64,000 nucleotides of DNA from Phoronis australis (lineage: Eukaryota > Animalia > Phoronida), in NCBI GenBank assembly GCA_002633005.1, contig NMRA01000376.1, forward strand, positions 4,410 through 68,409. Direction: 5' to 3'. The position numbers were made by a program, and so were the translations under genes. Shown in pieces: positions 25,965 through 48,462 of this stretch (its first letter is position 1; every line of letters starts with the position of its first letter). A model generated the notes under the pieces. It ran no database searches and was not told the origin of the DNA. It worked only from the letters and a program-made list of their open reading frames with translations.

Positions 25965-28051
25965 TCACACAAGCGTTATCCTCTCTTCACTGGAAATTAT
26001 TAAATTGGAATTAGAACCAAACTCGTGAAAGCTCGACTTCTTTTCTGAGTTTGAAAGTTGATACGGCACCTTTTGATCATTTATCTGTACCGCTGAATGT
26101 TCTCTTTGTCCAGCGCTGCGTTTAACTGTCTCGTTCTTTACAGCCAGACCATTTTGTCTTACTTTCTTTGCATTCGAGTCGATCACCTTAGTTTGGCTAC
26201 CCAAATGTTTTACACCTGATAATTCCGAGAGTCGACGTAGTTTCGTCATCTTATCTTCACTTAAATCAGCTTTGATTTGTGAAGAAGAACTTGTTGGCTC
26301 GTTTGCTGTCTTTGGTTTTCGTGGTGAAGGTATCGGAATCCCAGTGTGCTGTGCCGGTTTCTTGTCATTAAATGAAACGCTTCTTGAACTCCACCAAGAA
26401 AATCTTGGCAGGCGTGACAGTATAGAGTTAGGGAGTGATTTCACAGGTTTATCGTTCGGGGATCTCTTGTCTACGATAACACTACCGTGACTGCCATTGA
26501 ATGTATTAGTGCTAACGTCTCTGTCCGAGATTTCATGTTTTTCACCTTTTGGCGCCGGTGAGTTTTTTTCAGGTACATAAATCGCTTTGTTCTGCAACTG
26601 AAATTTTGTATGGCAGTCATTTAAATTGTCAATATTTTGTCCAATTTGCTCGGATGGCAGCACGTTAGGTTCAGTGTCTTCGTCACCAACAGATGGCACA
26701 GGGGTAGCAATTTTCTTTTCAACGTGGGATTTCATTTGCCGCTGCAAACTGCTAACCTGCGCTCTCAACAATGAGATTTCACGAGACAAAGAAAAGTTGT
26801 CTTTCCTGAGTTTTTCGTTTTCATTGGAGAGCTGTGTAACTTCCGACTGAAGACGATTTGAGGCTTTCTTCATTTCTTCAATTTCCTCCGCTTTTGTGTT
26901 AACCGCTTTAGCTAAATTTGACCTGTCAGACTCCTGTTTTAGTTTCCGATTTTCTTCAAGTAAGTTAACTACTTGTTCACCAAGACTTTGATTTTCCTCG
27001 GTCAGAAGTTCCACCTCCTGTCCCAGGGTCTCGTTGCGTTCCTTCATCATAACATTTTCTTGTTCGCTCTCAAAACACTCTTGCTGCACTCTTTCAAGTG
27101 TCGAGTTCGCTATCACTATAGTATCATCAACGCATCTCCGAAGAGCATCATTTTCTCGTTTCGCATCTTCTAATTGCTTCACAGTTTCCTCTAACCTAGA
27201 GTTAATGGCAGACAACTCTTGCTGGTGCTTCTTCACGTTTGCCTCTGATGCTTGCAATATGGCGTCTTTCTCCCTTTTAACTGCCTGGTATTTATAATTA
27301 CTTCTCTGTGCCATATGCATCACTTTAGACATGTGCATTTCTGCTCTCAAGTCCCGATACGCCTGCGACTCGCATTGAGGGCTATACGCAGAAGCTGAAC
27401 TGGGCATAGTGGTGCTAGCGCGGCTAAGGAAACCCTCTTGAAGTAAAGAGTTGTCATCACTATACGAGGTTGCTTCATTATTAACCGACTCGCAACTATT
27501 GGCTTTATTCACCAGTGAGGGTGACATGCGATCTGGCTGATTTTCAACCTTTTCCAAATTGTCTGATGAAAAGCTGCGGATTTTTTCGGTCCATTTGTCG
27601 CCATCGAAACTCAAGGCCGAACTACTTCCACTCTTGCTTTTCTCGTTTAGTGCTATTGTACTGCTCTGTAGTTCTACGTGGCGAATGTTGTTCAACGTTC
27701 CAGCAAAATCAGAAAGCGAAGTCCACTTCTTTTCAGACTCTGACAGCAAAGGGATTGTGTTACATGGCAATAAGGGTTTTCCAACAGGGAGTGATTTGAC
27801 ACTTGAAGAACTTCTAGTTACTACTCGGGAGGAATCTGTACTACGTACGTTAGTGACGTCACAAGGCCTCTCCGGACTTGAACCCGCTGTCGACGATAAC
27901 AACGACATGTTCGAAGGCGTTCGCTGGCCGTAGCTAAACAGAGACATGTTGGATATCGCTCGCTGACCAAAATTAACCATTGAACCGGGCAAGGTCGTCT
28001 GAGTGGACGTAGATGAGAAGGAACAATTTCTCTCGGTCATGTGACTTCTCC
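25965..28051 (-). CDS. Tec-like terminal exon 17: ~695-aa Ser-rich and coiled-coil tail
   Basis: Longest ORF in the window; acceptor ttcacag at 28052-28053 in the phase required by exon 16; heptad-rich E/K/L/Q segment at ~26720-27360. Confidence 0.9.
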
Positions 28052-31000
28052 CTGTGAATGAGATAAAATCGTGTTTGTATAAAAACAGATACTGTAGAAT
28101 GAAATCACGCATTTGTTGTGATCTTCAATTATAGAAATTTCATGCATTGTCAAGTCTGTATTCTACATAAATAAGAAAACGTCTTTAGGATTGTGTTCCA
28201 TGAGAAATACTGCCCTGTTCTAGGCAACTTACGGCAACTTACCTTTAAAAAGTTTGGGTATTTTACTGGATGACTCTTTCGGTAAGCTCTTTTCGACTTG
28301 TCTGAGGAGTTTCCAAACGTCACGACAATTGGCACGAGATTCTGGTTCCTTGAATGAGAAAACGTCGAGATTCACTTCCATGATGGACACATTGTAATAT
28401 TGCCGATGGTGGTGGCCCGGGAAGGTGGTGGAGGGTGCGGATGGGGGAGGTGGGGCTGAAGCTCGATTTGTTACGGTGGCCCTCGCTAATGTGGCTGGTC
28501 CCCGTTATCAATTTCTACCCCACCCCCTGCACTGCTAAGACCGCCATCTCGAGGGTTCTTATTCTTGCAAGTGCCTCAGCTGAACGGGAGAAAACTGTTT
28601 CAATAATTTCCATGATAGCAAGTAGGACCTAGCAAAGTGGCCACTGTTTTTGCTTTTGGTGATGGTGCTTTCATAAACGCCGAGACATGTCAAGCCATTT
28701 TAAATCCATCGTTGTTTTAACGATTTCTGCCAATCCTCGTTCTGTCTCCAGGCGTGCGTTCAGTAACGCAAGGACCTACGCTAGGACCTAGCTAAAATCT
28801 AGTGATCTCATTTAAAATACACGGCAATATCTCACGTAATTTCGCGAAGTCTTGCTTTTTAGCGAAGTCCTAGCGTTACTGCACGGGAGGCTGCTATCTC
28901 TGATTTAGGTAACGAAAACCGGAATCAAATAGAAACACGTACTCACTCTATCATAAAAAAGATTTTGTGGTGGGTGGTCTTTTCCCTATATTTGTAGTGT
29001 AACTCGCCACAAGTGTTGTTCACGTTTGCGGCATCAGCAGACTTTGTAAGAAGTATTCAAATTTGCCCTAAGCTTTTGAGAGTTGATGGGGATTACATTG
29101 TTTTATTTTAATTTACACAGCTGGGTGGGGAAAGGCGTAATTCATATATTTATTGCATAGGACGAAATGAGTGTAGTATCCTTTTAGTGAGAAAATACAG
29201 CAATGGGGACCCCTTAGCTACTTGAGGTCCTGGTTTAAAGCATCGTTAACATACTTGTAAAACCGCCACTAACTAAAAGTGGTAGCGGAGGATGTAGTAG
29301 TCATTGGTGGCAGGGTTGAGGAAAGAGCTGATAGCGTCAATGTTTGTGATTGCTGTAAAGGTGGTGAAGTTTGTTAATGGTAAAAACAGAGGTGGTTGCA
29401 GTGATGGGGTGGCAAGTGGTACTAGTGAGACTACAAGTTACGATTTTGGGAAAGGTGGTGGCTGTGGTCGGCGTGATGGAAATGGGTTGGTTGAATCATA
29501 AATGACAGATAATCTCAAAAGACACCCAAGGAACGCTTTGAATGCAATGATTTAAGAACCGCCATTAGTAAGTAAGGCACGCATGCGTACTTTGTGCTAT
29601 TCTGCCTGCAACATGCAGTTGGCAATATTCTTTTCCTATACTAGAGACAATGACAAAAACTTTTTATGTATTTGTTGTACTTCACATTACTTTAATCACA
29701 CACAAACACACATACACGCACGCACGCGCACGCATACACATGCACACCACCACCAGTTCGTTACTTACCTTCCGAAGGCAACTCTCAGCAATAGTTTGAA
29801 GATTAGACCCAAATGTGGTCTCACCAGAGCGATGCGTGTTACCCAAAATCTAAAAGAAGCGGAATATCGATAAGGCCTTCATTTCTGTACATTTTCACCA
29901 ACAGTAAATTTCTCTCGCTTTGGAAATAAGTAAAGCAAAATACACGGCCCTAAATCCTCTGTGTATTTGTGAAAACAACTATTGGCCACTCTTATACTGT
30001 TTCAGTTTTATTACGAAGTCAGCTTTTGGCTTTGATACAAATCGAGAGTGAACTCTACGTTGAATTCTCAATATTATCGAGAATAAATAGGGACCTTTTC
30101 ATGCAACGCCTCTGATTTAAGGACTAAGACCCTATTTATTTTCGCTGTACTCAGAGCTCAGTTTTTATATTATTAGAAAATGTCATTAGCTAAAGAAGAG
30201 CTCATAATAAAGATGAAATGATAAAAATTACTTTTGTAAGTAAGGAAAGACAAAAATAGGGAGTAGATTTAGGGAACCAAGTTGAGTCCCTATTTGGGAC
30301 TGTTTCTTTTAACAGGACATAGAAAGACAACATACGACATACAGAGTCATGCTCCCTCACATCAGGATGCCTTTATGTACACGTGCACCTTGTGCACAGT
30401 CATTGTACAGTTAGTACACACCTGTTCCAAAGTTAACTCTGTACACTCGGGACAGCTGAACGACATCCACAGCAAAACACCAAAACTCCACACGTCAAGT
30501 TTTGTAGTTGTTGTCATGAAACCATGAGCGTCAGCCACCTCTGGCGGCAGCAATCGGTGTCGATTATAGGACACATGATTTCTTGGGTAGGCAACGCCTT
30601 CGAACCTGGAAATTTTGCACCAGTTTGATATGAGAATTGAGATTATTAAGTACATGTATACCAAGTCTCACGAAGCTCTCTTATTTCTCCATAAAAGGAC
30701 AAGTCGTAGCTAAATTCCCAAAATTTGAGGGAAAATAACGGGAAGACAACACCATCTAGACTTACGTGTACCTTTTAGCTGACTGGCCAGATGAAAAGCA
30801 GCCAGCCAGCTATCCTTGGCGCAAAGATGTATACTAAATATACAGCTTTGCACCGATGTGGGTAAAATACTGGACATATAAGATCTGACCGAAAATTAGT
30901 GTCATTAAAAACTACAGTCTTCCTTGAGTAAACTAAATTATTTATCGGTGTTGGAAAAAATGGCGTTATTCTGCTGCTAAAGTTGTAGAGAGATCTTTAG

Positions 31001-34000
31001 CGACGGCTTTCGGCGCAATGAAATATTGCGTCACCTATTGGCCAGTTTCTTTATCCGCCGATTCTTCAATCAAGTGTTCTTATTCCACGAGGTTGCGTAG
31101 ATGTTAAACAAACTATCGGAACTGGCTTCATTTAGTTACAAGTTTTTAGGATTTTGATACCGAAAAACCGAATTCCAGGAGAAATTTTGCTGCTGTCAAG
31201 CTATCACCATCTCCTGAGAGATGTCGCAAAAATTTAGGAAATGGCGCGTGCGCGTATCACGAGCGTACTGTTTTCAGAACGACGACATAACTTTTCTTTG
31301 TCAGAAAAGGCGGAGGATTATGCAAGAAAATGACGTTTATTAGATTGTTTTCCACTTAAACGGCTGTAACGGGCATGGCGAGTGTCGTTTGATTCCCAGC
31401 AGATTTTGTATGCACCCCGTCCGGTCTTTAGCTCTACATGTTGATACAAGTTTCATGGCGAGGTGACGAGCAGAACTACCCTGGCTGTGTGCAATTTCGG
31501 GTTCTATGGAAGCTTAACACAGAGTGGCACCTAGCTGTATTTCGATGATAGTCTTCATACAGCTAGCTGGCTGGCTACCAGCCATCTAGCTGTCAAAAAA
31601 TACCGTCAAAATACAGCTATGTTTCACTGTGTGTTCAGCGCCAACAGACCTCGAAATTGCTGACAATCTGGGTACTTCTGCTAGTCACATCTCCGTGAAA
31701 CTTGCATCAACATGTAGACCTTAAAACAGACGTTGGTGCATGCAAAATCAACGAACACTTACCTTGTCCGTTTAAGTGAAAAACAATCTAATAAACGCCG
31801 TTTTCTCGAATAATTTTCCGCTTTTAGTGACAATGAAAAGTATGTCGTCAGTTTGAAAAGAGTGCGCTGGTGACAAGGCACGCGTCATTTCCTAAAATTT
31901 TGCGACATCTCTCGGAAGATGATGACAATTTCACAGCAGCAAAATGTGCTCTGAAATTCGGTTTGCTGGTATCAAAAGACTAAAAACTTGTAACGAAATG
32001 CAACCATTTCCGATAATTTGTTGTGACATGTACGCATTCTCGTTGATTGAAGAATCGACGAAAAAAGAATCTGGTTAATAGGTGACGCAATATTTCATGG
32101 CGCCGAAAGCCGACGCAAAAGATCGCTCTACAAATTTAGCAGCAGAATAACAGTAGAACGCCATATAGAGCGATAAATAATTTAGTTTACTCAAGGAAGA
32201 CTGTAGCTTTTAATGACACTAATTTTGTGTCACATATTATTTGGTCATTTTTTTACCCACACCGGCGCAAAGATGTATATTTAGTATATAGTTTTGTACC
32301 AAGGCTAGATGCAAGGCAGGCTGCATGTCTTTGGCATGAGGTCCTGGGTTCTAGTCCCAGTGACCCCCACATTCCAATAGAACGTTTGCTTTCAAGATCC
32401 AGAGTTTGTTTTTGAATATTAAGTCAATCACGTGCAAACCAAAGAGTGCCTGTAATGAAATAAAAATCTCAGAGCATTTGAAGAACACAACAAAGCGACA
32501 AAATTGCTTGCTAACATGCGGATTTACCTGAATGCTTTATTATCCTAACTGAATTAAACATGAAAATTCTCAAACAAAAAGTGAGACCAACTAAAAATCA
32601 TATCCGGTTTCTCTATTTTTCAAACATAAAAAAGAAATTTAAATTATCGGTACCCTTCACTTAAATAGTTCTTGGCAACGAAATGACAATTACAGTATGA
32701 TAGTTTCCTTTAACAGAAGAGAGAAGTGAATTAGGCCATGCATTAAACTGATCAGGTGCATGTACATTTAGAATGGAATTTTTTTTCGCTAAATGTACAA
32801 ATGATGTATCCCCCAGATTGCACGGAGAGATGCAGAGATAGATTGAGTTACACTTACTGAGCGTAATGAAATCCTGTGATGACCACCGAGCTGCTATGTA
32901 CCGTGCAGTTTTCAGGAATCTGTGGGAAGTAAAAATACCAGCCTCTGTCTAAATAGAGAACTTATGCTGACGCAGAGAGAGTTCAGCCACCGCGGGAAAG
33001 TGTGACATCGTCACGATCATTAACTAAAGCATGTTACATGTACACACAGGTGACTGAGTGACGAGCTTTTTGTTGTCCAGGAGACACGTAAATTTATGTC
33101 ACTATGACATCTAAATTCCTCGATAGAGTAATCGACAGCACAAAAAAACGTTTATGTTTGCTTGTTGTAGCAATGTCGGAGGTTGCGACAAGCAGACGGA
33201 AAAGCTTTGAGTCCAATTTAACATATCACCAACAGAGGTCAGAGAAAATAAAAAGTGTACAGAAATGCAGCGAGCACATTAACCTAAACACAAATGTTGG
33301 CTGAATACAGCAAAACACTATTTCAGTCGTGGTCACTTTGTGAAGCGTGACAAGGTCAGTTGTCCATAAGCTTACAAATGAATGTTTACCAGTCTCCATA
33401 TAGTTACAAAGTCCGAGGAAAGTATGCATATAACATGTACCAAAAGTAACGCCATACCAATTCATTGTGGACGATTCCCCTTCTTCCTAGGTACGTCATG
33501 CCAGCGCACACGTCCGCCATTAATTTTAGGTACGCCGATGCTTTCACGTTGTTGTTTAACACGTAATCTTTCAGGTTAAAGTCACCATGGTAATCGGTAA
33601 CTACAGTGAAGAAACTTTCATCTGTTCCCAAGGCAAGAAGGCGCTGAATGTTACTGTGGTGAATGCATCTGAATGATCAAAATTGGCATTCATGTTAAAG
33701 ATGAGTTAACAGCATGGAACTGAAATGTTAGCCACTGTTTGACATGCGCGCTCCATCGCAAACGGTATATGTATTATCTGGTCATACAAAACTTAAATGG
33801 TGCAATGTATAGCCGACTGTTGACAGAGGAGATGGACCGAAGTCCCGCCTATCACATGCGTGGGACTAGGTATTGTTCAAAGTTTTGCGCTGCTTTCCCC
33901 AAGAGTGACACGCGTCACTAGGTGTCACAGAAGTTTGAAAAAGTCGGTAATGGCCGAACAAACGTAGCTTTTAAAATTTTCGTGTCATAAGTCGCTACTG

Positions 34001-37000
34001 GATAAGTGGTAATTTCCGCCGATATGTGAAAGACGTAATGGTTCCAAGCAAAGCCAAGAAAACATGATTCATATTTAAAACTCATAGCTTACTTGCTCCT
34101 TAAAGAGGTCTGGAACTAGATAAACAAACTAAATTGCAATTGAAAGTTATTCTCTGCCACTGTAACAGAATTCAGCATGTTCACCAGATATTTGTAAGGT
34201 TTTTGGTAAAGATTTTTAATTTCTGTGAATATAAAAGCCTTTTCTTTTATTTTCAAATTTCAAAAAAGGCCTGTCAACTGCTCGCCGCTTCGTCAATTTT
34301 TCTCCCACAAGGCAAAGCACGTCTCCTTATTTGGTATGGCAAGACATAGAGGTAGCACATTTCTCTTTTGTGAAAAATGTGACCGTCAACCTCAAGGGAC
34401 TTCAAGCAACTGATTGTGAGCGCATGCGCGCATTTATCATAATGGGAAGGAGATTAGAAACTCTGTGGTAACCACAAAATTTTTCCTTCGCGCGTATTTT
34501 AAAAATAGTGAATTTTGTGATTTTTTCTGGAAATTTGCTCACACGGAGGAGTGAATTACTCTGTGCAAGACGCTGCAAGATGATAATTTCGTCAGAAATT
34601 GTTTAAAAGATATTTTTGACGAGATTTCGCATTCTATGCCTCTTTAATAAAGGTACATTGTCGTCGTGTATACAATGTAGTTGTTATGACTTACAAAAGA
34701 ATGTCGGTCATTTGTTTGAACTTCTCTCTGTCACTATTAGACGACGAATGCTCTTTATATACCAAAAGCTCTTCCTTGAAATTTCCATCGCGGTAACAAG
34801 CTGTAGATATTTCCTGGAATTCAAATAAATGAACAGCAATAGAGAAGCCAATTCGAAACGACATGGGGTTCTGCTACATAAATAACGGTACCCGTTCTCT
34901 TAAATACAATGTCTGAAATCAGGCATACAGTCTTTAAATTTGAACATGTTTTTGCGACAATCGGCGCAAACGGGCGCAAAACTCATGATACACGCGCGTC
35001 CCTCGGTTGCATAAAATTGTTAAAGCTCTTGGCAATCCCACCAGTAAATTCGTAAAAAAGCGAGCTTTCATCCCCGGCTACTGAACTTGGATAGCTAAAA
35101 TGTGCCATTGCTTGTATACACTGAAATAGTCATATTTTGAACAAATTTATTTTAGTTCGTCTTTAAGTGGCGCCCCAGAATTTTAATTCAAGGTCGCACA
35201 TCTCCTAGTTCTCTGTGGCGTTGGACACGGTTTTCTCCATCAAATTTAAGAGCTAGTCCACGAAAATATCAAAATAAATTTTAAAAAATCACTTTAGTGG
35301 TCATCTTTCGGATTCTTTTTTAACTTTGTGTATGTAATCGTGGTGGGGCTCTGACACAAAAACCAATCACCAACTTTGCACTTGTTGACCTCTTAGTTTT
35401 GTACCTATAGACCTTCGAAGGTTCACGAAGAAAATTGCACGTTTTTGCATACCGAAAACAGCAAGTTTTCTACTGTAAAAACAGTTAGATCTTATGCATT
35501 GAGAGAAAAAACGTAATGAGATTAGGAAGTGGGATGTAAGGATTACCAAATAAACTTGACACTAATAATTTCGCGGCATTCATTACTTGACAGGGGAGAT
35601 AAGTCCGGAGGCACTTTTTTGTTAACGGGTGTCACTTGAGTGCTTCTATAAGCCAGTTTGCAGGGCTGTGGACATTCAACGATATGTTTATGGATAGATC
35701 TTGGATGGGTAAAAAAAAATAATTAAAAACTCTCGAATATGCTTTTTTCAGTTTTTGTTCTAAAAACGCTCCAATGTTATTATTATTAGTAGTAGTATTC
35801 TACGCTTTTTAAACAAGTTTTTGTATCTTTATTACATTTAAAATGGTTTCAAGATGAAATAATTAATGAAAATTAACATTTTAGATACCATAATGCTGTC
35901 TGACACATGCATACACCATTTCACTCATTAAGCGTTCATAGCTGACTATGAGTCAGAGGTTACGCAGGCACTGGTGATGACATGTTAGCCTTGAGCCAAT
36001 ATCCAAAACGGTTGCCGCGCTTAGAGACAATTTTTAGGCTGACGTGAATAATTCACGTGAAATATTCCGATTCGTACACTATTTCAAGGTGATTTAGCTT
36101 CATGAAGGATTCTTTGAAATTAAGGGTTCGAGACTATGTGAAGCAGACGAACCGAAAATTATTTTTTCACTCTACAGACAAAGCCTATACACAGGAATGG
36201 CGTGGATGTCTGAAACACAAGAATGAAAAACATCAAAATCCCATGGTGCGTTAAAAAATCGACGCTATTTATGTGTTGAATTTTGACATTCACTTTTGAT
36301 AGAGTTGGCCATCTTGCATTTCAGCTGCATAGGTTACGAGTTTAAAAGTGCCTAAACATTATATTCACAAATATTATAACAATAAAATTTAGTAACATAC
36401 CCTTGTCTACGATTCTGAACAATCCCTGAGTTTAAACCAGAATTTAATCACGCAGATCTAATTAAAGTGCTCACAATTCGCGTTAGACAACATGGCGACT
36501 TTTGTTGAACTGAAAGACGTTTTCAAACGTCTACATTGTCGTCGGTGAAGATTTAACACATTTGTAGATACACTGCTGCAAAAAGCAGTTTTGTACAATT
36601 TTCCGGTTTTTGTGCCATAAGAATTATGAATGTCCTATTTATTTGAATAGGAAGTGTCCATTCAATTGACCTTGCACTCTGCTTAAGTTTTGAAATCGTT
36701 TTTTGTTTGAAAGTCAACTTTTCTTCAAGGTGTAATTATGTATATTTTTCTAAGTTTTATGCATAAATTGCGCTTTTGATTCATGTTTTGTAACTACTTA
36801 CTTTCTAATTCAGCATCATCAAAATGCGAAAAATCTTACTTGATTTGCAGTTTCCATCTGGATTATGAAGAGTGAAGTTTCCTCGGATCTTTCAGCCTAA
36901 TAGCTTCATTTTTTATTATCATACTTGTCAAATTCTAGCTTAGAAGGAACGCTTTTATGGTACTGAGTCGGCATGGTAACAATTATGCATGTCCGCTTTG

Positions 37001-40000
37001 ATAATAAACGCGATTTTGATTCAGCCTGCATTGCTAAAATTCTTAGTTACTTATTGTGGCAAAAGGTTATCAAGATCATTTTAGTTTACATGTTAATTTT
37101 GTACTCAGAAAACTTTGTTAGATGTAAGCCTTAGCTATAACGACAACCCGTGCATCCGAAATATTTAAATCATGTTATTTTTATCTCCTATGGGAGTGTG
37201 CCAGCAAGTGACAAAATCTGTTTTGGGTGGAATTGGTTAAATGGTTAGTAGCCAGTAACAATGACAAAATCAGATTGCCAGGACAAAGCATCAGTTACTG
37301 TAACAGCTGACGGGGGGGGGGGCGGCACAGGTTAGACATATGAACGGTTTCCAAAACGCTAAAACTGCTACTGGTGGTGCAGCACTGGTTAGAATCATTC
37401 GGAAACGTGCATGTAAATAATATTAGATTTTGATCAAATTTGAAGTAAGAAATGGAAAACAAAAATGACGCATGTAAAACGAGTTTCGATATTAATCAAA
37501 GGCATCCTCATGTAAAATAGTAGACAGAAATAGAGAATGCTACACTTGTCTCCAGTTTATGACATGGGCAAAACCTCTTAGAAATGTCGTCTAAGTCCAG
37601 AGTCTTGCCAAGAGCGCACACGTTTTCAGCAGGTGAGACAAAATACATAGATATCCAGAGATTTAACACAATATCTTTTTAGTTTTTTTTTAGTTCCACC
37701 ACCTCTCACAACCCCCTTTCAGTTCTGCAGATAGATGAGTTGTCGTAGCAAGGATTGTGAGAGTAAATGCCTTTCTTACCCACGCAAAAGTAGTGTCCAG
37801 TTTATTCAGAACTTTAATGTTAGATAAGTCTGATGTCCAGTAGGCGTTGAGATGGGCCTGAGTAGGGTGGGTTTGCAAATGGACACCGAACACTGGAAAG
37901 AAAAAGAAAAATATGAACAACAAAACACGTGACTCTTCAAACTTTTCAAAACCTTTTAAAAGTTCGCTGAATCCTTATACTTTACCATTTTGATTGCTTT
38001 TGAATTGCTTGAAATTAAACTAGAAAAAATTCTATGAGTTTCATAAAGTTTCGATTTGTTGTCACGAACACGTTGATACTATGTTTCGAACTTTTATGGG
38101 GCATCGATTACTTTTTATCGCGATATTTACTTGTTAGAAAATGTTAGGAAATATAATGTTTTATATATTTATAATCGTTTAGATGTATACTATACAAAAA
38201 TTGAACATCAAGACGTCTTTCTCCAATGTATGTTCCAGCAAGTGGATGTCAATTGAAAATAGAAGTTGTGAATAACTAGAAGCGTCGAACGAACCGCAGA
38301 ATTAGTGGAAGTGCGACTTTCTTAATAGAGCTCCGTTGTTATTAAACAGGCCAAAAGTTTAAAAAAACCATTGCCGTATCAGCCTTGAACTGATTGATTA
38401 AAAATGATTTTAATAAAATAAGGTAAAACTCCTTACCTTGATGCCTGCGATAATGGTCCAGTAACTGAACCAGCGAATCGAACTCGTCAGTGCTGATGAC
38501 ATAATATTGGCCTTCTTCTGTTTGGTAGATACCCACGTGCTTGACTGCGTCACGGGCACTGTAATGGTGGTAGTATTTACGTGCTAGTTTGAAAATGCAA
38601 ATATACTGTTACACACGACTTGTCGGTGGAATAGGGACTACTAAAAACTGTATTTTCAGAATTTAATTTTTGTTAATGAACGAGTTTAATGATGAAAACT
38701 CTTTACGCACATATTTAAGAATGCAAAGATTTACACGATCAACAATTGACTTACTTAATCGACAAAACCAAGCGTTTGCGACAACTTCGCACCAAAAACG
38801 CACCAGGACCCTAAAAAGATAAGGAAGTGTATTAACAAAACGATTGATAGCAATTCAAAATATGAGAATGAATTATAACAAACAATGTGAGAGGTATAAG
38901 TTTGCGTTATTCTTCCTATCCAACATTGGAATATAAAACTTTTGTTGCAAAGGTTGCCCCTTTATTCAAGCTAGCAAACACAGCTATTCTCACACAAACT
39001 TTAAATATCATTAAAGCCTTACGTGAGGTCGAAGAACGAACAAAGCCAAGGCAGACGACAACTCTCTAAAGAACCACGGCTGCTGATACACGGGAGGTAA
39101 TTGTAACAACGTTTGCGACAACAATCCCGACCGGTTTGTGGCTTTGGAGTAGACGCGCCAGATCCACTTGTCCGAGGCATCAAGAACGGTGAGTTCTTCA
39201 TTCTAAATAAAGCCATAAATGATAAGTTGCCTCGGTGATAATGACCAAGTCTTACATTTTCAAAGAAAGACTAGTTATTGTCCCTGTTGAATAAACAGGT
39301 AGTCACTAGAGCCTACATAGCCACGGAAGCATATCTCGATCTTTTTATCACATACCTCTCACACACTTTTTGCAAGAAAGGGAGTGTAACCACTTGCTTT
39401 CCTGCTGTATCACGATGGTGGTGGCAATTTCTTTTCTCTGTAAACACTGTTCATGTTCAGAACTAGCTCTTCCCTTCGTTTTGTCCTTTTTCAAAGTTCA
39501 CAATTTAATAAGGTTTACACTGCTGCGCGACACGCACCAAAATTCCTGCAGATGGTGCATCATCGGGACCAATACGCACCGCATAGCCATCTCTCAACTA
39601 GTCCACACACGCTAACTTAGGCTCTATGAAAAAAATTGACTTGCAACATTTTTGTCAATAACCCTGCTTCTCATGTTAACAACCCTTTTAGAAAAACACA
39701 ATATTCAAACCTTTCATTTTATGCGCCAAGCATCAATCAATAACAAATTGTCAGAAATAACTTCGTAAGAGTAGGGTACAAGTTGAGGTGTAAAAAATAC
39801 TAAGGTTCTTTGGCGGAAGATTGGTTTAGAGCAAATTTTTAAAACACCGAACTCAATGACACGCTTATGGGTGACATTGATTAATTCAACAACGGATTTC
39901 CGATTTCGGTCTAAATTAACGATTTCTGAATAACGTTTTGTAAAATTCTTTTCCTTTGCTGGTTCAAGATGTTGGTTTGTTCAAAACATTGTGTTTGTAC

Positions 40001-43000
40001 GGTAGGTCCTCTCTTGTGACTTACAGCATGTGTCAAGCGTATTTCGCACATAGTTAATTCTGTTGCTTTCAGACGTTCATTTATTAAACCACGCTGTTGT
40101 AAAAAATACCTTCTGTACGGACATCTGTCCTGGTGCCGATGTGTCCACTGAAGACTTGGTTACGACTGTAAACCCCCAAAACTGACAGGCCGGTGGAGGC
40201 GAAACAAGCTGAAAATAAACCACATCTGTTACCAAATCTTACCAACGACGTCAATAATTCCATATGTGTTTTAGAAAAACAGTTCTGAGCAAACTATTGT
40301 GTTATTTCCTTCCGCAATCACATGGCATATTCGAAGTAAACAGTAAATAGAGGTGCGTTCCGTAATGCTAGACACTCGCGACACACTTGCGGCAAGACAC
40401 CTTGGCTCGTGACATAGTAAGTAGAGTTTTCCTAGTGATTCAACATTCCAGCCTTGTCCACCATTCACTGCCGTGTCGGCAATTTTACTAGTAGACTAGT
40501 AAGATCGCGTTCTTACTCGCAAAACATTGGCCTTTCATGCGCATGATCTTGCGTGATCATGACAAAATTACATTAAATTCGCCTCAGGCCGGAAGGCACT
40601 CCAGGTGTCAAAGTTACTACAACCATATCTAATGGAAATTTAGAGCAATTAAACTACATTTCAATAATTAATTTTTGGCAAATTCAACCTTGTTAAATCC
40701 TTCTAGTCGGCGAGGAAGTCCTAGTATTGTCGTCTCTTTACACCCCGTGTTGGTTCGTCTCGCAGATCGGCAACACGCCCACCGTCCGTTGCTATGGATA
40801 CCGTCATGAAAGTGCGTTTGCCACGTTTCGTTTTGAACACACGCTGAAACGAGTAGGCAGAGTCTATGACACATCTGCCGCGTTTATGTAATTGTCTATC
40901 AGTAACGACTTAACTTTACTTTGATTTTTAAAAAGATGCCTTTTAGGGACAATGTTCCTCACTGACATCATTGTTGACTGGCAACTGTAAATAATCTTAG
41001 AGCTAATCTGGACCCATGTGTATTACGTACAATGCTTTTTACGTGTATTCAGAGTGATGTCGTTAAGTTTCTTTTGTAAAACAGTGAACATTTTTTTTTT
41101 ATCTCACCTGCTCGTATTGCATTCAGCCAATTAAACAACGTTTCCTCCTCTGGGGCAGAGAGTAGCAACATCTGTTGACAGTCGTTGTCTTCAAAATGTA
41201 CCTAAATGCTCAATGGTATTAGTACTGATTTCGCATTTTAATGTGGATTTAAACTTGCGTTCAGTGCAAGCAGTGAAATTTTGATTTAGACCATGTATGC
41301 AAACTTATACAAATTGTCTTTAACTTGTTCCTAAGTGAAGTTTGGGTTTGCAAAACACCGAGGGTTCGTTAATTCTCGAGACCACGCGCGACGCGCAAAA
41401 TGACACGCCGTGACAAGTCAGCTTGTAGAGCCTCGGTCTCGTGCTAAAGATAACTGGCAGTTCTTTTGAAGCCGGGAAATCCCATCCAGTTCGAGTAAGG
41501 GACAATTTAATACCAATTTCATTACGGAACGTGGTCTAACTCAAATGTTGTTTTGAGGATAGAAAGTGGGTTCATAGCACCTTTAATTAAAATTAGGCTG
41601 TCTTTAACGTAACGGCTAAAGAAAGACATTTTTTACAAGAGTGCCATTATGCGTACAACACAGAGTAGAGATTTATGAGAAGAAAAATATCCCGAGCAAC
41701 TGGAAGTGACGCTACGTCTTCATGGTTATTAATAATTTTAGTGCAGCTGGCTATGAGGAATTTCTGATAAAAAAAACCAGTACACGTATTTAGAAAACGG
41801 ATTCAAAAGTCCTCCTAAAAGTAAGGCCGGACATACGATCATGACGGGTGTTTGCGTAATTGTAGAATAAAACGACATCTAAACCAAATTCTGTAACTAA
41901 TCACTAATATAAAGGCATCTGGTGCGAAACCGCAGCTCGGTTATTCTTGCGAGTCAAAAATCTCGGAAAACACTTCGTGCGCTGCTTAAGATGTTCTCGA
42001 GACTAATTTCTAACTATTAATGATTAGAAAGCCTTTAAGTCCGCAATCATTGTTGAGAAGCAACCAGGTGTCTTAGCCGGTTGACCCAGCCAAATCCGGC
42101 GTCGAAGTCACTGAATCGTGAATCAAGAGCAGCCAGTGAATTTGGAAGTTGTTACCATTGACAGTCCCTTGCAGTAAAACACTAATCGGTAGTATAAGAG
42201 AAGCCAGTGACAAACACACCCAGTACAAGCCTCTTTTCAGCCATAAGTGCACAGTCGGTTTCGCGCAAGCCAAAACCAGTCAAGATTGTGACTGTATTCA
42301 GTGATTTTCATATTTGGAAAGTCACGTGAGTTGACTAGCCTAACAGGTGCCACGCAAGTGCCAGCATTTACTACTAAAACATCGCTGCGCAGCATACGTG
42401 GAGAGTGAAAGCATAAAATTGCGATGAGAGGACCAATCCGTGCACTTGTTGGGTGTGTCAGCCGTTGCTGCTAAGACATATAAATCGGAGCCATCTAATG
42501 TCTGCTAGGTAGTAATCTTGCACAGCACATCACAACTACATTGAAGGAAAACTACCGGAACAACCCAATCTACTAGCGATCCTAGTGGCTAAATACAAGT
42601 CCCTTATTAACTACTCTCACCTGTAATACATACTCTTTGCTCTCAACACTGCAAGCCAAGCGCTCAACACACACAATGCTCGGTAGTGCCACTTGTACTG
42701 TTGGCTCGGAATCATCATCCTAAAAAATTTTCGGCTTAGTTACTTTCAAAACTATTTTACACAGGTGAAACTGCTAGTTTCCACCAGGTACCTATATATA
42801 AGTGGGAGTCTTGTACATGTAATATTCAAGGTGTTGCTTTGGTTGCGTGACCATGTCTTGATAAATGTTAGCAAATCCCTAAGGTTCATTCGTAGCAAAA
42901 CAGCAGTACCAACAAAATGACTAAATTTCCACTGTCATGAATATTTTAAAAAATAAAGTAAAACGCTGTCACAGTTGTGTAAATTAACTTTCCATTTTTC

Positions 43001-46000
43001 TATTGCATGATCATTGTCAACTTTTTCACCCCCAGTACCGTGACGTCTGTCGTTTACTTCACGGAATTTTCAGACTCAATTAGAAACAAAACTGTTCCAG
43101 CTGAGGCGGGATGCCCACTCATCGGCGGTTCCTCGAACGGATCTCAGCCGCCGACGGAAGAGCCTCCGCACCCCCCTCCCCTTCCTTGGCCGCAGACGTA
43201 TTCCTATATAGTGTTACAATGGCCAGGGCAGGTGACGAACAGGAAGCATTGGCTGGAAACAATTCCATGGTCGCGTCTCTAAATTCCAACTGCGATCCCT
43301 AAATCCCTGTTCCAGACCACCCAATTCGGAACCAGGTGCAATTGTTTTTATACAAGCGCCCTTAAACTCCAAAACAAGAGCCGGAAACACTCCATACCTG
43401 GTGACCAATCTCTACCCGCAACCACTCCTCGGATATGGAGTTTGCCGGGCACTAAGCATGCGTCGAATTCAGGGGCGCGGTTAAGGGATTTGTACCGCGG
43501 GACCGATGTTTACTGGCTGGGGTCCACGGGGTCGTAACTCAAAGGCGCGCCATGGAATCGCTTTCATTCCTGATAAATCTGGATACGAAAAAGTGTCATT
43601 TAATTAGACCAGCTATTTCTGAGACGTTGTTCCGAAGTAAACCCACATTTTTACATTGCCTAGAGTTACTCAAGGATACCCAAAACTCATTTTGGTATAT
43701 AGCTGCATCAAATGCATGACATGAGTAGCGTACTTATCCAATTCGCGGGCGCCCAGTATTATTTGGCTTTAACCAATAATATTTACAATAACAACACAAA
43801 ATTCAATATGTCGTCTGTCGTTCCTTCGTTAAACTAGTTTATGTCACAGAGAGTAAACAGCGATAGAATTTGTGATAAATTATGCGAGAGGCACCACATT
43901 CAAGAGAATCACTGGCCTATGGCGAAAAGGCTGGATGATAACGTCCCAATGTCATCGCTTGACCTCAAATAATGATAGGCGAATATTAAGGTTTTGATTT
44001 ACATGTACATGTACAAGAACAGGTTCAGGAAACGAACTCGACACGCCAGCCTGGCCATGATTTCGAACAAGGACGATGGTCTTTTCAGGCAGTATACAGT
44101 AATTTTGAATGACCGACGAATAACAGCACCACAGGGAACTCCCACAGAAGGTGCACACAGGGCGTGGCACACAGATCCCGGTGGTTTTTTCACTGCCAAA
44201 TTGCCTAAAAGAGTACCGCTTCTCCGACAGGTTGCTGTCTCTGATTTATTCGCCACAAAAGGGGATCGGTTAGGAAGTTATAGAGCTAAAAAGATGACGT
44301 GGATGAAATAAATCTCCGAAGAGTGTTTTTTTCCTGGGAGCTCCTTATTTGGTGTCCATCATCCCAATGGGGTGGGTATCAATTTTCCACACCGTCAAAA
44401 ATATTCAAGCATTCCCTGATCAACCCACAGGTGCGCGAGCACACACCAGGAGTACAAAATAATATCTCTTTCTACTGACATATCTTTAATCATCCAGTAC
44501 ATCACAGACTCTTCATTGTAGTGTTCACCGATCACCGTCCCTATTGTACACTGACCTACTATAATGGCGTATAAACAACCACAAATATTAGTATTGCACG
44601 ACTGATGTCACAGTCATTCGTATCGCCTTTAGAAAACAGCAATCATTATTGATTTCCAAAGCTATCAATTGTAACAAAAATATTCAAATGGCATTCTTGC
44701 GGCTATCGTGTTCGATTTGGCCATTGTGTATTGTGTAGAATTGGCCTTTGCCATTGTTCGGCCATTCTCCTTTGTCCTAAGATGCCTGGCAATGGGACGG
44801 CATTACCAGTCATTATGCAGGTTTCCCTTCCTCAATGTAAATAGGCGAGGGAAAATTTGTCAGAATGTTCGTGACCCAGGGAGTGCTTCGTACAAACGTT
44901 GTTTTTAAACCGGTATTTATCCCTAACAGATTATATGCATTGCAGGTGATAACTGTAGATGAACCTTTTGTTGCAAATGTCTGACTCTGACATTGAATCA
45001 AAGTCCCTGGTTTTGTAAATACGTTTCGTTGTCAATTACGCTATGTCCTGTTGGGGAATGTGTGCAAATGTTTTATAACAGTTTTTATTTGGTTAACATT
45101 TTTGCACTCACTGATCCCAACACCATTACCAGAATTCCTCGATAATTTAAGTACCATTCACAGTTGAAGCATATTTATGTACTTTTAATTTGAAGCTCTG
45201 AAATTCATTTTAGTCAAATTAGTAGATTATACATTATTTTTTAGTACTGCGTTTGAACTCACCAATACACAAAAACAAAAACACAATACACGTAATCACA
45301 TACCCATGCGTGCACCCAGCCTAAAATATAGGGGGACTCGAACTGGTATGCGGACCTTTTACTGAAAAAATCAGCGAGGACTAAAAAAAAACGGGCCACT
45401 AGGTTCAGGCCTACGGATTGTGCATCCGCGCCTAATTCCTGTGGGCTTTGTGGATTTTTGTCTCCTTTACTCGGACTTTTTGTTTCGCTGAGGCGGTCTT
45501 TTTTGCCCCCTGGGTGCGCCCATGCATACCTAACCAGAATAAGCGGTGGCTCGAACAAGTGTTTTTGATTTTTCCTCTAGTCTAATTGCCAGTGTGATCA
45601 CAGTCATACGAGGGTTGGGATGAAGCGATTACAAGTCATGAATGTTTAACTATTTACTTTGAAATCAATTAAAACCAAGCACAAATATTGTTGCGCACTA
45701 TAGTCGCTTAATATGGCAATAGGATTGATCAGTCAAATACTTGTCACATGACTTATTAGCTCCATGGTTCGAGGAGGGTAGTCAAGGTTAAAATCGGATT
45801 ACCCAAGAGCCATTTAGAAATTTGCGAACAGAAGTACTTACATTGTCCAATAAATTCCTAAGATTGTCGAAAGGTGGAACTTAATGGCTTGATTATAGAA
45901 CACCTGAGGTTAAAGAGGTCGTTTTACTTGTTACCGGGACATGATGTGCTTGCCCTAAAGGCCGAGGCTACAATGTTGTGTGCCAGATTACATCACGTTA

Positions 46001-48462
46001 TGTCTGTGGTTCGATACTCTGGCACAGGGCATTGCGCAAAAATATGCATCGTAATTGAATAATTTGTCCATGAACTATTATTGAATGTAGATGAATGGAT
46101 TTACGACTAGTCTTTCGTGTGCAGTTCTTGGCAAGTCTCCCGCTGTAAATCGCAAATACACATGATTCTTTAGAAGCTAAACTTTCTTCCAAACTGCATT
46201 ATGCCCAACTTATATATGAGAACTAACAGAGTAAAAGTTTTACTTTTACGAATACACACATGGTCTCAAAATCTGAAAATGCCATAATGAACACGGGATT
46301 GATGCTATAGTGACTAGATAGGGACGTGTCACCACCATTGGATATACTATATTTTTTACTTCTCAGGTATCGTACCGGGCAGGTATTTCTGCCTTTTCAA
46401 GCATTCCTTGTATGGTGATTTTGGCTTGGGTACCATTCAAGCGCACTTGTCAACTGTCACGCCTTTGGCGGGATTGTCCTGCTTTTTGAATATTTGCTCC
46501 CTCACACCATGAAAATGTCTCGTGAAATTTAAAAATTTCCACACCATTGTAATATTTCACGCGATGTAGCTCTCTTTTCCCGTTCAACTAAAAAAAAAAA
46601 CGCCGTCAGGGTGTTTTCTGGTGTGGCGGCGGACATTTCACCCTAGCGTTTGGCATAGACCCAGATGTCGAACTTTGTTTCCTGTTGTCGTGTTTTTTTT
46701 GTCAATCCAGGTTCCCGCTTTTTATTTTCAAATAGTGGCAACTATGACTTGCGGATTACGCAAGTACTTCGTTTTCCTGGATTTTAGATTGGTGGCAATC
46801 CGCTACTTATTATCTAAAAGAGAATCCCACGAGATCTAGAAATCACAGGAGCGCATAAATTGGGTTATTTATGATGTCAAGGAAATCTTTCATTGTTCAG
46901 TTATTGTTTCTTTGACAGTTTAGATCTGGAGCATTTTGTTCCGTAGCGGAATGTAATGCTACTTAGCCCTCGGGTATAACTCTGAATGTTCAGTACATGT
47001 TACCTGGTATCACAGTTCGTGTACAAGAGAAAAAACGCAGGGCTGCCGTACGTTGTAACAAAATTCTTGTCCTCGCGGCCACTTTGTTTTCAATATCTGT
47101 AACTGCAGGTTACATTTGTTTCCTTCTTTAGTGTTTTATTTGAACAATGAATTTGATACATTAGGGGTACGTTAATGCCAGCGTTTTTCGTGTTTTTTCT
47201 TCTAGTTCCCTGGCGGCTGTGTCGTAGAAGTTGGACGGTAGTTCCCATTTACATACATCATACAAAATATTCTTGTTTTACCTTTTAACGTCTCCAATGA
47301 GGAGCATGTGTTCACAATAAGTAACCATCATGCGGTTAGAGGTCTTCAAGACATTTGGTGATATTCCAACTTTTCTTTATTTTTATACTGTTGCTATTAA
47401 AGTAAACTATATGTTTGCCGGGTTCGTACTAGAAACACATCGCGAAGACGACAAGGCGTGTAAGAAGGGGTTACGACAAGACAATTAGCTTAGTACTGAC
47501 ATGGATGGTGTCAAGTTGCCCAAAGCTGGCTGTACTGTAATTTGCACTCGTAATTTTGCGAACTGTGACCAACGCGGGAGTGTTATTAGCATTCAAAATT
47601 TTAAGGTTTCCTATGGAGGTCGTAATAATGCAGGTTTCATTGTATTTGGTCCTGACATTACACGTAAACTCAACCCTATTCCAGATTGTTTGCTAAACAC
47701 ACACTGGGATGTTGGATATAAAAGTACCATCGCCGTACGATGTTATTGCTCTTCACAACTTGACCAGTGCCGCAACTCATGTGATGTAACAAGTGTTTTT
47801 GAGGTTGTACTTGCAGCAAGATCACGGCTAAAGCCCTAGTTTCACGTTGAAATGGAGAACTATGATGCATCTCATTTTGAATACCAACACTGTCGACATA
47901 ACAAATGGCATTGTCATTTGACCCATAACATGAAGTTCTGAGCAACATAAATAACATCATGCGTGTTAAGAGAAAGTTACACGTCCGCAAGGATGATCGA
48001 TCCATCGTTACAGAAACTGACACAAACGCGTGCCAAACGGCAACGGGTAAGCCGAATAGGCCCTGTATAGGTTGAACTTTTTTCTGACCCCCCGCACACG
48101 GAATGATTCCAATCAACCCATGGTTGTGAATCAACTGGGTATGCATAGTTTGCAATTCCAGTGCATCGACTTGGCTTATTTGTACATTACAACAGAAATT
48201 CCTTGCTTAAAGTCAGTGACCCAGGGTGGTGACCATACATGCAGGGCAGTTACCTTAACAAAGAAGTTACGCTGTTGCTCTGCAGCTTGATACGAGTGAT
48301 GGTAAATGAAATTGCTTTTGTTAGAGCACTTACCCATTTCTCCTGCGATGCGTAGAATTTCAAGCAGTCATCAAGCACGGCGTAGACCTTAACAAACGTT
48401 TCGCATACAAAGTTAAGACCCCTGCGATATTTTATATCCACAACACCAGATAATTTCTTCAT
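25965..48462 (-). CDS. Tec/Btk-like predicted pseudokinase: PH - Btk Zn motif - degenerate SH3 - SH2 - inactive kinase fold - long Ser-rich/coiled-coil tail; 17 coding exons, ~1320 aa
   Basis: complement join(48334-48462,42621-42719,41108-41201,40689-40843,40110-40208,39023-39202,38755-38810,38437-38558,37780-37892,35587-35665,34695-34800,33458-33668,32858-32919,30422-30605,29769-29849,28243-28348,25965-28051)=3963 nt, in frame, all GT-AG. Motifs: FHDG...WACC...GC (Btk motif); WFFRELS, GAFLVR, VKH (SH2); HSNIQRLL, GMTYL..GIVHNEL, LLPPE, DVWSFGVLLW, CLRKEPESR (kinase fold). The start codon is the least certain part. Confidence 0.88.
28243..28348 (-). CDS. Tec-like exon 16 (subdomain XI, SKIP motif)
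   Basis: EPESRANCRDVWKLLRQVEKSLPKESSSKIPKLFK|gtaagt. Confidence 0.8.
28761..28881. mobile_element. ~120-bp MITE, copy of 6645-6763
   Basis: cagtaacgc...gcgttactg termini. Confidence 0.85.
29697..29753. repeat. Imperfect (CA)n/(CACG)n microsatellite
   Basis: cacacacaaacacacatacacgcacgcacgcgcacgcatacacatgcacaccaccac. Confidence 0.75.
29769..29849 (-). CDS. Tec-like exon 15
   Basis: ILGNTHRSGETTFGSNLQTIAESCLRK|gtaagt. Confidence 0.8.
30422..30605 (-). CDS. Tec-like exon 14 (activation segment, alphaF)
   Basis: RLLPPEV...TTKLDVWSFGVLLWMSFS. Confidence 0.9.
30797..32326. mobile_element. ~1.5-kb foldback element with ~560-bp imperfect inverted arms
   Basis: Left arm ~30797-31363, right arm ~31768-32326; aaaattagtgtcattaaaaactacagtcttccttgagtaaactaaattatttatcg versus cgataaataatttagtttactcaaggaagactgtagcttttaatgacactaatttt. 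Confidence 0.9.
32858..32919 (-). CDS. Tec-like exon 13 (catalytic-loop end, DFG replaced by GFH)
   Basis: cacag|IPENCTVHSSSVVITGFHYA|gtaagt; 62 nt, phase 0/2. Confidence 0.82.
33458..33668 (-). CDS. Tec-like exon 12 (kinase subdomains IV-VIb)
   Basis: CIHHSNIQRLLALG...VVTDY...LKDYV...DVCAGMTYLGRRGIVHNEL. Confidence 0.9.
34695..34800 (-). CDS. Tec-like exon 11 (beta3 and alphaC)
   Basis: CYRDGNFKEELLVYKEHSSSNSDREKFKQMTDIL|gtaagt. Confidence 0.75.
35587..35665 (-). CDS. Tec-like exon 10 (N-lobe insertion)
   Basis: cacag|PCKLAYRSTQVTPVNKKVPPDLSPLS|gtaatg; 79 nt, converts phase 0 to the phase 1 required by the next exon; no homology support. Confidence 0.55.
37780..37892 (-). CDS. Tec-like exon 9 (SH2-kinase linker, degenerate Gly-loop)
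   Basis: FGVHLQTHP...YWTSDLSNIKVLNKLDTTFAW. Confidence 0.8.
38437..38558 (-). CDS. Tec-like exon 8 (SH2)
   Basis: VKHVGIYQTEEGQYYVISTDEFDSLVQLLDHYRRH. Confidence 0.9.
38755..38810 (-). CDS. Tec-like exon 7 (SH2 FLVR)
   Basis: GPGAFLVRSCRKRLVLSI. Confidence 0.88.
39023..39202 (-). CDS. Tec-like exon 6 (SH3 C-half, SH2 start)
   Basis: NEELTVLDASDKWIWRVYSKATNRSGLL...QQPWFFRELS. Confidence 0.85.
40110..40208 (-). CDS. Tec-like exon 5 (linker, SH3 N-half)
   Basis: LVSPPPACQFWGFTVVTKSSVDTSAPGQMSVQK; phase 0/0. Confidence 0.7.
40689..40843 (-). CDS. Tec-like exon 4 (Btk zinc-binding motif)
   Basis: THFHDGIHSNGRWACCRSARRTNTGCK: H-x10-CC-x9-C. Confidence 0.88.
41108..41201 (-). CDS. Tec-like exon 3 (PH C-terminal helix)
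   Basis: VHFEDNDCQQMLLLSAPEEETLFNWLNAIRA, with the invariant PH Trp. Confidence 0.85.
42621..42719 (-). CDS. Tec-like exon 2 (PH)
   Basis: DDDSEPTVQVALPSIVCVERLACSVESKEYVLQ|gtgag, resembling Tec-type I.CVE...YPFQ. Confidence 0.8.
48334..48462 (-). CDS. Tec-like exon 1 (PH beta1-beta3)
   Basis: MKKLSGVVDIKYRRGLNFVCETFVKVYAVLDDCLKFYASQEKW|gtaagt; acceptor-like gtgcag 8 nt upstream of the ATG. Confidence 0.7.

Follow-up and report, generated by a model that had tools for sequence, protein, structure and literature searches.

The minus strand of a 64,000-nucleotide stretch of the Phoronis australis genome (contig NMRA01000376.1, positions 4,410 to 68,409; hereinafter, the window) carries a multi-exon frame that combines a Tec-like array of domains, an altered kinase fold and a long C-terminal extension. 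The question raised by this locus is whether the frame encodes a single protein that has given up catalysis for another role or is the remnant of a kinase gene. Our preferred answer, to which we assign a moderate probability, is that the gene encodes one 1,298-residue Tec-derived pseudokinase acting as a dimeric scaffold.

The frame extends from an ATG at 48462 to a TGA at 25965, and the spliced model comprises 16 GT-AG coding exons, with 1,298 codons and no internal stops (Table 1). The 11 exons between 39202 and 25965 have canonical GT-AG ends and agreeing phases, and jointly yield 1,106 stop-free codons; the 5' exons 1-4, which encode the PH domain and the Btk motif, are also linked by GT-AG joins that keep the frame open. 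The uninterrupted frame of the original prediction is thus recovered but its count of 17 exons is not, and the difference would fall in the linker between the Btk motif and SH3. The path from the Btk exon to SH3 is the sole uncertain stretch of the gene model: exon 4 has no strong donor, the best one being AAG/GTTGAA at 40689 (phase 0). This late donor is favored because a metagenomic protein fragment, P0002 (see below), resembles exon 4 until a few codons before 40689. The linker exon that follows (40208-40110, phase 0-0) supplies a PPP stretch and, as judged by eye, the first half of SH3. A 28-nt candidate exon (39283-39256) resembling an SH3 strand was dropped because its phase is shifted by one base relative to exon 6. 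The surrounding segment of the minus strand, 39446-39202, includes a strong-looking donor at 39356 in addition to this AG/GT-bounded 28-nt segment, and an alternative exon or an assembly indel is possible there. Within intron 1, positions 43509-44285 attract about 2 reads in the gene's direction in each of the RNA runs X2 and X3; these reads lie next to two open frames (92-97 codons) and a pyrimidine-rich AG, and might reflect a repeat, an additional exon or an alternative start.

Table 1. The modelled pseudokinase gene, motifs in its tail and neighboring genes (positions within the window).
Feature	Position	Strand	Evidence
Exon 1: start codon, PH strands 1-3; Lys kept at BTK K12 place, R28 equivalent apparently Val; no Pfam PH match alone	48334-48462	-	GT donor; by-eye comparison to PH of P0001
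Exon 2: PH middle strands	42621-42719	-	AG/GT ends, phase 0-0; aligns with PH of P0001
Exon 3: PH last strands and C-terminal helix	41108-41201	-	Pfam PH E 0.15, PH_17 E 0.049
Exon 4: Btk zinc motif, 3' end uncertain	40689-40843	-	PF00779 E 1.9e-9; ITK and BMX Btk motifs matched in PDB
Exon 5 (inferred): PPP and first half of degenerate SH3; alternative acceptors 40181 or 40165	40110-40208	-	Splice scores, phase, gapless by-eye register with SH3 pattern
Exon 6: SH3 second half and SH2 start	39023-39202	-	Lck/Hck SH3-SH2 E 0.027-0.6; Atlas SH2/SH3 clusters 0.82 (lead only)
Exon 7: SH2, FLVR arginine intact	38755-38810	-	Sequence
Exon 8: SH2 C-terminal half	38437-38558	-	Pfam SH2 E 5.2e-6; PDB SH2 matches
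Exon 9: SH2-kinase linker Trp and glycine loop LDTTFAW, no Gly	37780-37892	-	Alignment with kinase profile and BTK row
Exon 10: beta3 Lys (34756-34754); Met at alphaC Glu place, +15 residues	34695-34813	-	Profile alignment; BTK spacing identical
Exon 11: hinge to catalytic loop, HRD = HNE	33458-33668	-	Pfam E 6.6e-9; PDB alignment
Exon 12: catalytic Asn kept; DFG = GFH (32874-32866)	32858-32919	-	Profile alignment
Exon 13: activation segment Tyr (30589-30587), PPE, alphaF motif	30422-30605	-	Pfam E 1.1e-4
Exon 14: alphaG-alphaH	29769-29849	-	AG/GT ends, phase 0-0
Exon 15: subdomain XI Arg and alphaI; no stop before AAG/GTAAGT	28243-28348	-	Splice signals; no Pfam or PDB match alone
Exon 16: 694-residue tail, Ser/Thr-rich disorder flanking central coiled coil	25965-28051	-	Open frame, model, RNA contig at 27231-27385
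Coiled coil, tail residues 229-447; predicted parallel in-register homodimer over 233-370	26709-27365	-	AlphaFold models
RSVSF, RVxF-type candidate PP1-docking motif	26370-26384	-	Pattern fit; short, chance possible
C-terminal ITLV, class I PDZ-type candidate motif	25968-25979	-	Pattern fit; short, chance possible
CLCA-like multi-exon gene, signal peptide and C-terminal hydrophobic helix	8181-24531	+	Pfam CLCA E 0.0019
M14 zinc carboxypeptidase exon	59602-59940	-	Pfam E 1.6e-11

The PH-Btk-SH3-SH2-kinase order of domains is upheld by Pfam and PDB matches and by shuffle controls, with the first half of SH3 assigned by eye. Comparison of single exons with Pfam detected the Btk motif (PF00779, E 1.9e-9), SH2 (E 5.2e-6) and PK_Tyr_Ser-Thr (E 6.6e-9 and 1.1e-4), and weakly, on one exon, PH (E 0.05-0.15); the expected domain family was missed in 7 of the 12 exons scanned, and the PDB sequence search with exons 1, 5, 10 and 15 produced no match at E 10. 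When joined, the PH exons score 13.4 bits against a real PH domain, that of a sturgeon RASAL-type protein (P0001), compared with at most 5.2 bits for 500 shuffles, and the exon spanning the SH3-SH2 junction resembles Lck/Hck (E 0.027). The Btk motif retains its zinc ligands, a His and three Cys. By contrast with BTK, which contacts PIP3 through residues that include K12 and R28 (PMC6511029; PMC11311582), the counterparts of K12, N24, R28 and Y39 in the PH domain include, by eye, only the Lys, the rest being Thr, Val and Phe. The aromatic and Pro ligand residues of SH3 are lost (by eye; partly visible in the Lck/Hck alignment). In SH2, the FLVR Arg and the betaD His are retained and the alphaA2 Arg is lost (by eye). 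Thus, the lipid-binding Arg of PH and the ligand surface of SH3 look lost, a degeneration absent from the original prediction, which narrows the scaffold model to SH2, the surface of the kinase domain and the tail.

In the kinase domain, the three Gly of the glycine loop, the alphaC Glu, the HRD Asp and the DFG Asp are lost together, and the beta3 Lys stays. The strings LDTTFAW, LVYK, KQM, HNE..PEN and GFH, previously proposed to occupy the places of the catalytic motifs, align in register both with a generic profile built from 13 Ser/Thr kinases of bacterial and viral contigs (54 bits; 2.3 bits for the best of 300 shuffles) and, by eye, with the BTK row. In the profile alignment, Met replaces the alphaC Glu, the HRD Asp is replaced by Glu and the DFG Asp by Gly; the glycine loop and the beta3 Lys lie outside the local HMM match and were placed by global alignment and by eye on the BTK row of the PMC8662651 supplement, in which the Lys-to-alphaC-Glu spacing is 15, the same as here. 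The structural motifs, namely, PPE, the alphaF motif and the subdomain XI Arg, are retained as predicted, as are the linker Trp, the gatekeeper Thr, the catalytic Asn and the activation-loop Tyr. As a Tec hallmark, PPE is not exclusive: the motif is present in ALK and missing in BMX and ITK. A Phe occupies the place of BTK G480, beside C481 (register by eye), and bulky residues in the G480/C481 region of BTK block ATP binding (PMC9636578). The GxM motif of the beta3-alphaC loop and the GxKF motif of the activation loop, which are regulatory motifs of the SrcM subgroup (PMC8662651), are both lost, as judged by eye against the rows of that source. Pseudokinases are defined here by the loss of at least one of the beta3 Lys, the HRD Asp and the DFG Asp, and both aspartates are absent; from the Tec catalytic set of Lys/Glu, HRD, AAR and DFG, Lys and Asn alone are kept. 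Given these catalytic failures, the protein is best called, from its sequence, a Tec-derived pseudokinase and is not to be classed as a Tec kinase. No alternative exon restores HRD or DFG: the six frames of the window contain no second kinase-like exon. Intronic HRD- and DFG-like strings were dismissed given their non-kinase context.

The same pattern of losses bears on an unlikely alternative, the best surviving of those we considered, under which the protein would regulate an active Tec or Src paralogue, allosterically or as a decoy, by means of the dead lobe or SH2, with the tail involved only in localization. JAK JH2 and HER3 are precedents for dead kinase lobes with regulatory functions. 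The persistence of the fold-stabilizing motifs and the linker Trp after the loss of catalysis would fit such a role, as would the assembly mediated by the pseudokinase surfaces of SgK223 (PMC5660093), whereas the disappearance of GxM and GxKF and the loss, by eye, of the SH3 ligand surface speak against it.

The connection of the kinase domain to the tail is supported by the signals around the intervening intron. Exon 15 ends in the donor AAG/GTAAGT, and 4 codons into the following intron the frame would stop; this intron is 191 nt long, has a pyrimidine-rich CAG acceptor and phase 1 at both sides, and contains no AATAAA. Such a signal is located 20 nt 3' of the tail stop codon. We infer that exon 15 is spliced onto the 694-residue tail exon, a frame that would remain open by chance with p ~4e-17 at the local stop frequency. 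For the predicted fusion joint, 28243 to 28051, the splice signals and phase fit, but the joint is absent among the 15 RNA joints listed of 85, all of which are at repeats; no spliced reads at any junction of the gene are found among these 15. An RNA contig from run X1, presumed to be an RNA run, is identical to the tail over 155 of 155 bases (27231-27385). With about one fifth of each run read, runs X2 and X3 together place ~38 read-equivalents on three tail bins in the gene's direction and ~2 in the opposite one, and run X4, one of the three raw-read runs, gives no tail coverage. The bins with the SH3/SH2 exons receive 0.2-1.9 read-equivalents per run in X2 and X3, those with exons 4-5 receive zero reads in the gene's direction, and expression is ~0.5-1.2 RPKM. 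The tail is weakly transcribed, and for a library of the usual kind the read direction would be that of a minus-strand mRNA; otherwise, read-through from the adjacent CLCA-like gene is possible. The concentration of RNA at the 3' end of the tail and the lack of junction reads could indicate that the tail exon forms a single-exon gene of its own or an alternative end, with the pseudokinase stopping 4 codons past exon 15; in-frame Met codons near the start of the tail frame and a GC3 of 0.42 in the tail against 0.49 in the upstream exons would fit as well. We nevertheless consider such a split distinctly unlikely: a consensus donor, a CAG acceptor and matching phases delimit a short intron devoid of AATAAA, there is little room for a promoter, a single AATAAA follows the tail stop, and a 3' bias is normal for poly(A) data.

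A single spliced product would thus carry the tail, which had been described as a long coiled coil. A coiled coil is indeed present but accounts for only ~220 of the 694 residues, the rest being Ser/Thr-rich and modelled with low confidence: AlphaFold run without an alignment gives pLDDT <50 for 455 of the 694 residues and a confident helix at 229-447. Two copies of residues 225-450 were modelled as a parallel in-register coiled coil with a score of 0.45 (best of 3 controls, 0.00), contact agreement between runs of at least 81% and pLDDT of at least 72. In a microbial benchmark, 21 of 30 solved dimers and none of 23 monomers reached the mark that we used for dimers; in a eukaryotic one, 17 of 29 dimers did so, including 1 of the 7 that lack an older solved relative, and none of 30 monomers. 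The tail is accordingly predicted to form a parallel homodimer, and generic coiled-coil likeness may explain why it passes. Searches of the tail against Pfam and Atlas returned generic coiled-coil matches or none, with Atlas recognition below threshold; Foldseek with the tail model gave no match, and no F-actin-binding or F-BAR family was detected by Pfam. Two short candidate motifs, RSVSF and the C-terminal ITLV, conform to the RVxF pattern of PP1 docking and the class I PDZ pattern, respectively.

The origin of the gene from a Tec kinase is supported by the domain order and the intron positions but not by the best matches of individual exons. In agreement with the PH-SH3-SH2-kinase architecture of the Tec family (PMC8662651), PH is followed by the Btk zinc motif, and SH3-SH2-kinase follows PH-TH. 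Nine of the 15 introns coincide with human BTK introns in position and phase, and the segments between them differ in length by whole codons; these matches were picked post hoc, by comparison with BTK alone, and of the nine BTK boundaries 3 are taken from papers and 6 as background. The published boundaries include c.391/392 and c.1908 (PMC12722325) and c.1631 (PMC7302398). The introns located 3 codons after DFG and 2 after the CW motif are placed exactly as in BTK (anchors L528 and W634), and the published boundary c.520 (phase 1) has no match in the weak phase 0 donor. The intron positions of Src, Abl and Csk differ from those of BTK. The PDB matches of the Btk exon are Tec proteins, and no other single exon has a Tec protein as the best match; among the kinase exons, the best matches are the Src-Abl ancestor/Csk for exon 11 and RON/ALK for exon 13.

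This mosaic of similarities suggests an alternative that we regard as improbable, namely, a chimera in which a GAP1/RASAL-type PH-Btk was placed on a Src-, Csk- or Abl-type SH3-SH2-kinase. The Btk exon has its best match in a RASAL-type protein, with which PH also aligns well, and the SH3, SH2 and kinase exons match Lck/Hck, PLCgamma/Yes/Src and the Src-Abl ancestor/Csk first, but single-exon scores separate these families by 1-3 bits only. Moreover, two introns, one following the DFG+3 codon and the other the CW motif of alphaH, match BTK exactly, as do those after HRDL and in alphaC, and the DVC, NC and PPE residues fit the Tec rows (PMC8662651 supplement). The C2 and RasGAP domains that precede PH-Btk in the GAP1/RASA family are missing from the model, which begins at PH; none of the 12 exons scanned with Pfam matched C2 or RasGAP. 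Taken together, the sequence features support Tec descent.

A search with the Btk exon against 1.84 billion representatives yielded 2 matches, the sturgeon RASAL-type protein and P0002. The latter is a fragment of 68 aa encoded on a 69-kb metagenome contig; it has a Btk motif and, downstream, a segment similar to exon 4 (43% identity), and might derive from a Tec gene or from the orthologue of a related animal. Searches of the protein collections with single-exon queries detected no orthologue, but such queries are short and these negatives weak: the exon 11 search retained 0 of 38 candidates at E 0.001, the Btk alignment search 0 of 45, and the tail matched 0 of 7,971 proteins of 1,216-3,470 aa, so that a shorter stand-alone relative may exist; viral contigs contained no homologue. 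One metagenome locus that matched the tail encodes a bacterial coiled-coil protein and was dismissed as a chance match.

To what extent the frame reflects selection can be gauged from simulated neutral decay of the 603 N-terminal codons, which remained stop-free in 2 of 300 runs at 90% identity and in 0 of 300 at 80, 60 and 40%. Because such runs lose the frame and, even in the best-conserved exon, just 22 of 68 residues are those of the nearest solved kinase, we conclude that the frame was kept by selection during divergence. The claim of a pseudokinase rather than an old pseudogene is supported by the motif losses, the neutral-decay runs and the weak, strand-biased RNA. A recently inactivated or selectively relaxed duplicate heading to loss, which would account for the degenerate binding surfaces of PH, SH3 and the kinase domain, the very low expression, the one weak donor and the lack of a detected orthologue, is highly improbable given that the frame has outlived ~70% amino-acid divergence with the zinc ligands, FLVR and fold motifs kept. 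Equally hard to credit is an active kinase of a non-canonical type, relying on the kept Lys and Asn together with the Glu in place of the catalytic Asp. The beta3 Lys, the gatekeeper Thr and the Asn of the catalytic loop persist, and the loop end IPEN resembles the KPxN of Ser/Thr kinases, but four catalytic elements are lost at once and a Phe stands at the place of BTK G480.

As for the function of the dimeric scaffold, kinase-inactive BTK still signals, with a phosphorylated Tyr of the kinase domain recruiting HCK, and kinase-dead ITK still drives actin remodelling (PMC11311582; PMC9636578). In the phoronid protein, SH2 would dock the dimer onto tyrosine-phosphorylated partners, with the coiled coil doubling the valency; an active Src- or Tec-family kinase would phosphorylate the activation-loop Tyr, and the phosphorylated Tyr would recruit further SH2 proteins, so that the dead kinase domain becomes a docking surface. 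Location would be set by the C-terminal PDZ-type motif, not by PIP3 binding of the degenerate PH domain, and the constitutive coiled coil would take the place of lipid-triggered PH-TH dimerization. We tentatively propose, at slightly less than even probability, that the protein is a dedicated, constitutively dimeric phosphotyrosine scaffold that dropped catalysis, PIP3 sensing and SH3 binding, whereas dimerization and location were taken over by a tail with PDZ and PP1 docking motifs. Of the catalytically dead scaffold initially envisaged, the first part is supported by the missing catalytic residues and the open frame, and the scaffold role goes beyond what the sequence and the dimer prediction provide. 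On the best reading, the gene is lineage-restricted and its product reads phosphotyrosine.

Compared with the Tec kinases (BTK, TEC, ITK, BMX, TXK and invertebrate Tec/Btk29A), the gene has the same domain order (PMC8662651; PMC11311582) and nine of the introns, and shares PPE with BTK, TEC and TXK, but lacks the catalytic, GxM and GxKF motifs, the R28 equivalent and the SH3 ligand residues, and adds the 694-residue tail. Kinase-inactive BTK (K430R/E, C481F/Y/R, L528W) and kinase-dead ITK are similar in that a Tec architecture signals without catalysis, as the phoronid protein would; unlike this evolved, multiply substituted protein with its own predicted dimerization tail, these mutants carry single substitutions and working PH and SH3 domains. 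The PEAK pseudokinases dimerize via helices that flank the kinase domain, and their disordered region is N-terminal. Two of these, SgK223/Pragmin and SgK269/PEAK1, are dead, helix-dimerized scaffolds of tyrosine-kinase signaling (PMC5660093), and the phoronid protein as proposed here would resemble them. They lack PH, Btk, SH3 and SH2, and the phoronid protein falls outside the PEAK group by architecture. The Fes/Fer kinases oligomerize through coiled coils. In Abl, SH3-SH2-kinase is followed by a long C-terminal extension (PMC8662651). In contrast to the phoronid protein, Abl and Fes/Fer are active enzymes without PH-Btk.

In agreement with the earlier remark that no described protein of such architecture was known, we found none, and no Tec pseudokinase, among titles and abstracts, a coverage that does not extend to the main survey of pseudokinase evolution (Kwon et al. 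2019). Full novelty is weakened because supplement S1 of PMC8662651 already counts 15 of 1,085 Tec-cluster sequences as pseudokinases, with no description in the rows examined. If the present reading is correct, the gene would be the first of the Tec-family pseudokinases to be described, and the tyrosine pseudokinases would gain a cytoplasmic architecture with SH2. Kinase-independent signaling by BTK explains inhibitor resistance, and its structural basis has been studied only through point mutants; the gene may represent a natural equivalent of the kinase-dead BTK variants found in drug-resistant lymphoma and would offer a natural test of the surfaces that carry the kinase-independent function. 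Long evolution without catalysis shows which Tec features are kept for scaffolding and which are dropped, those kept here being the zinc motif, the SH2 arginine, the linker Trp, the activation-loop Tyr and the C-lobe. The weight of this case is limited to that of one genome, with no orthologue found and a predicted kinase-to-tail splice.

The window is intron-rich, with 39.8% GC and an observed/expected CpG ratio of 0.94, a composition of animal type that points to a non-vertebrate. The pseudokinase gene is located between the CLCA-like gene and the M14 carboxypeptidase exon, and is arranged tail to tail with the former, which ends ~1.4 kb past the pseudokinase stop. The intron between exons 12 and 13 contains a 1.5-kb foldback element (30807-32311) that consists of four nested inverted pairs, 83-90% complementary, and is heavily matched by repeat reads. 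A 352-nt duplicate at 58766-59469, with 98-99% identical copies and a single N at 59117 between them, is probably an assembly artefact.
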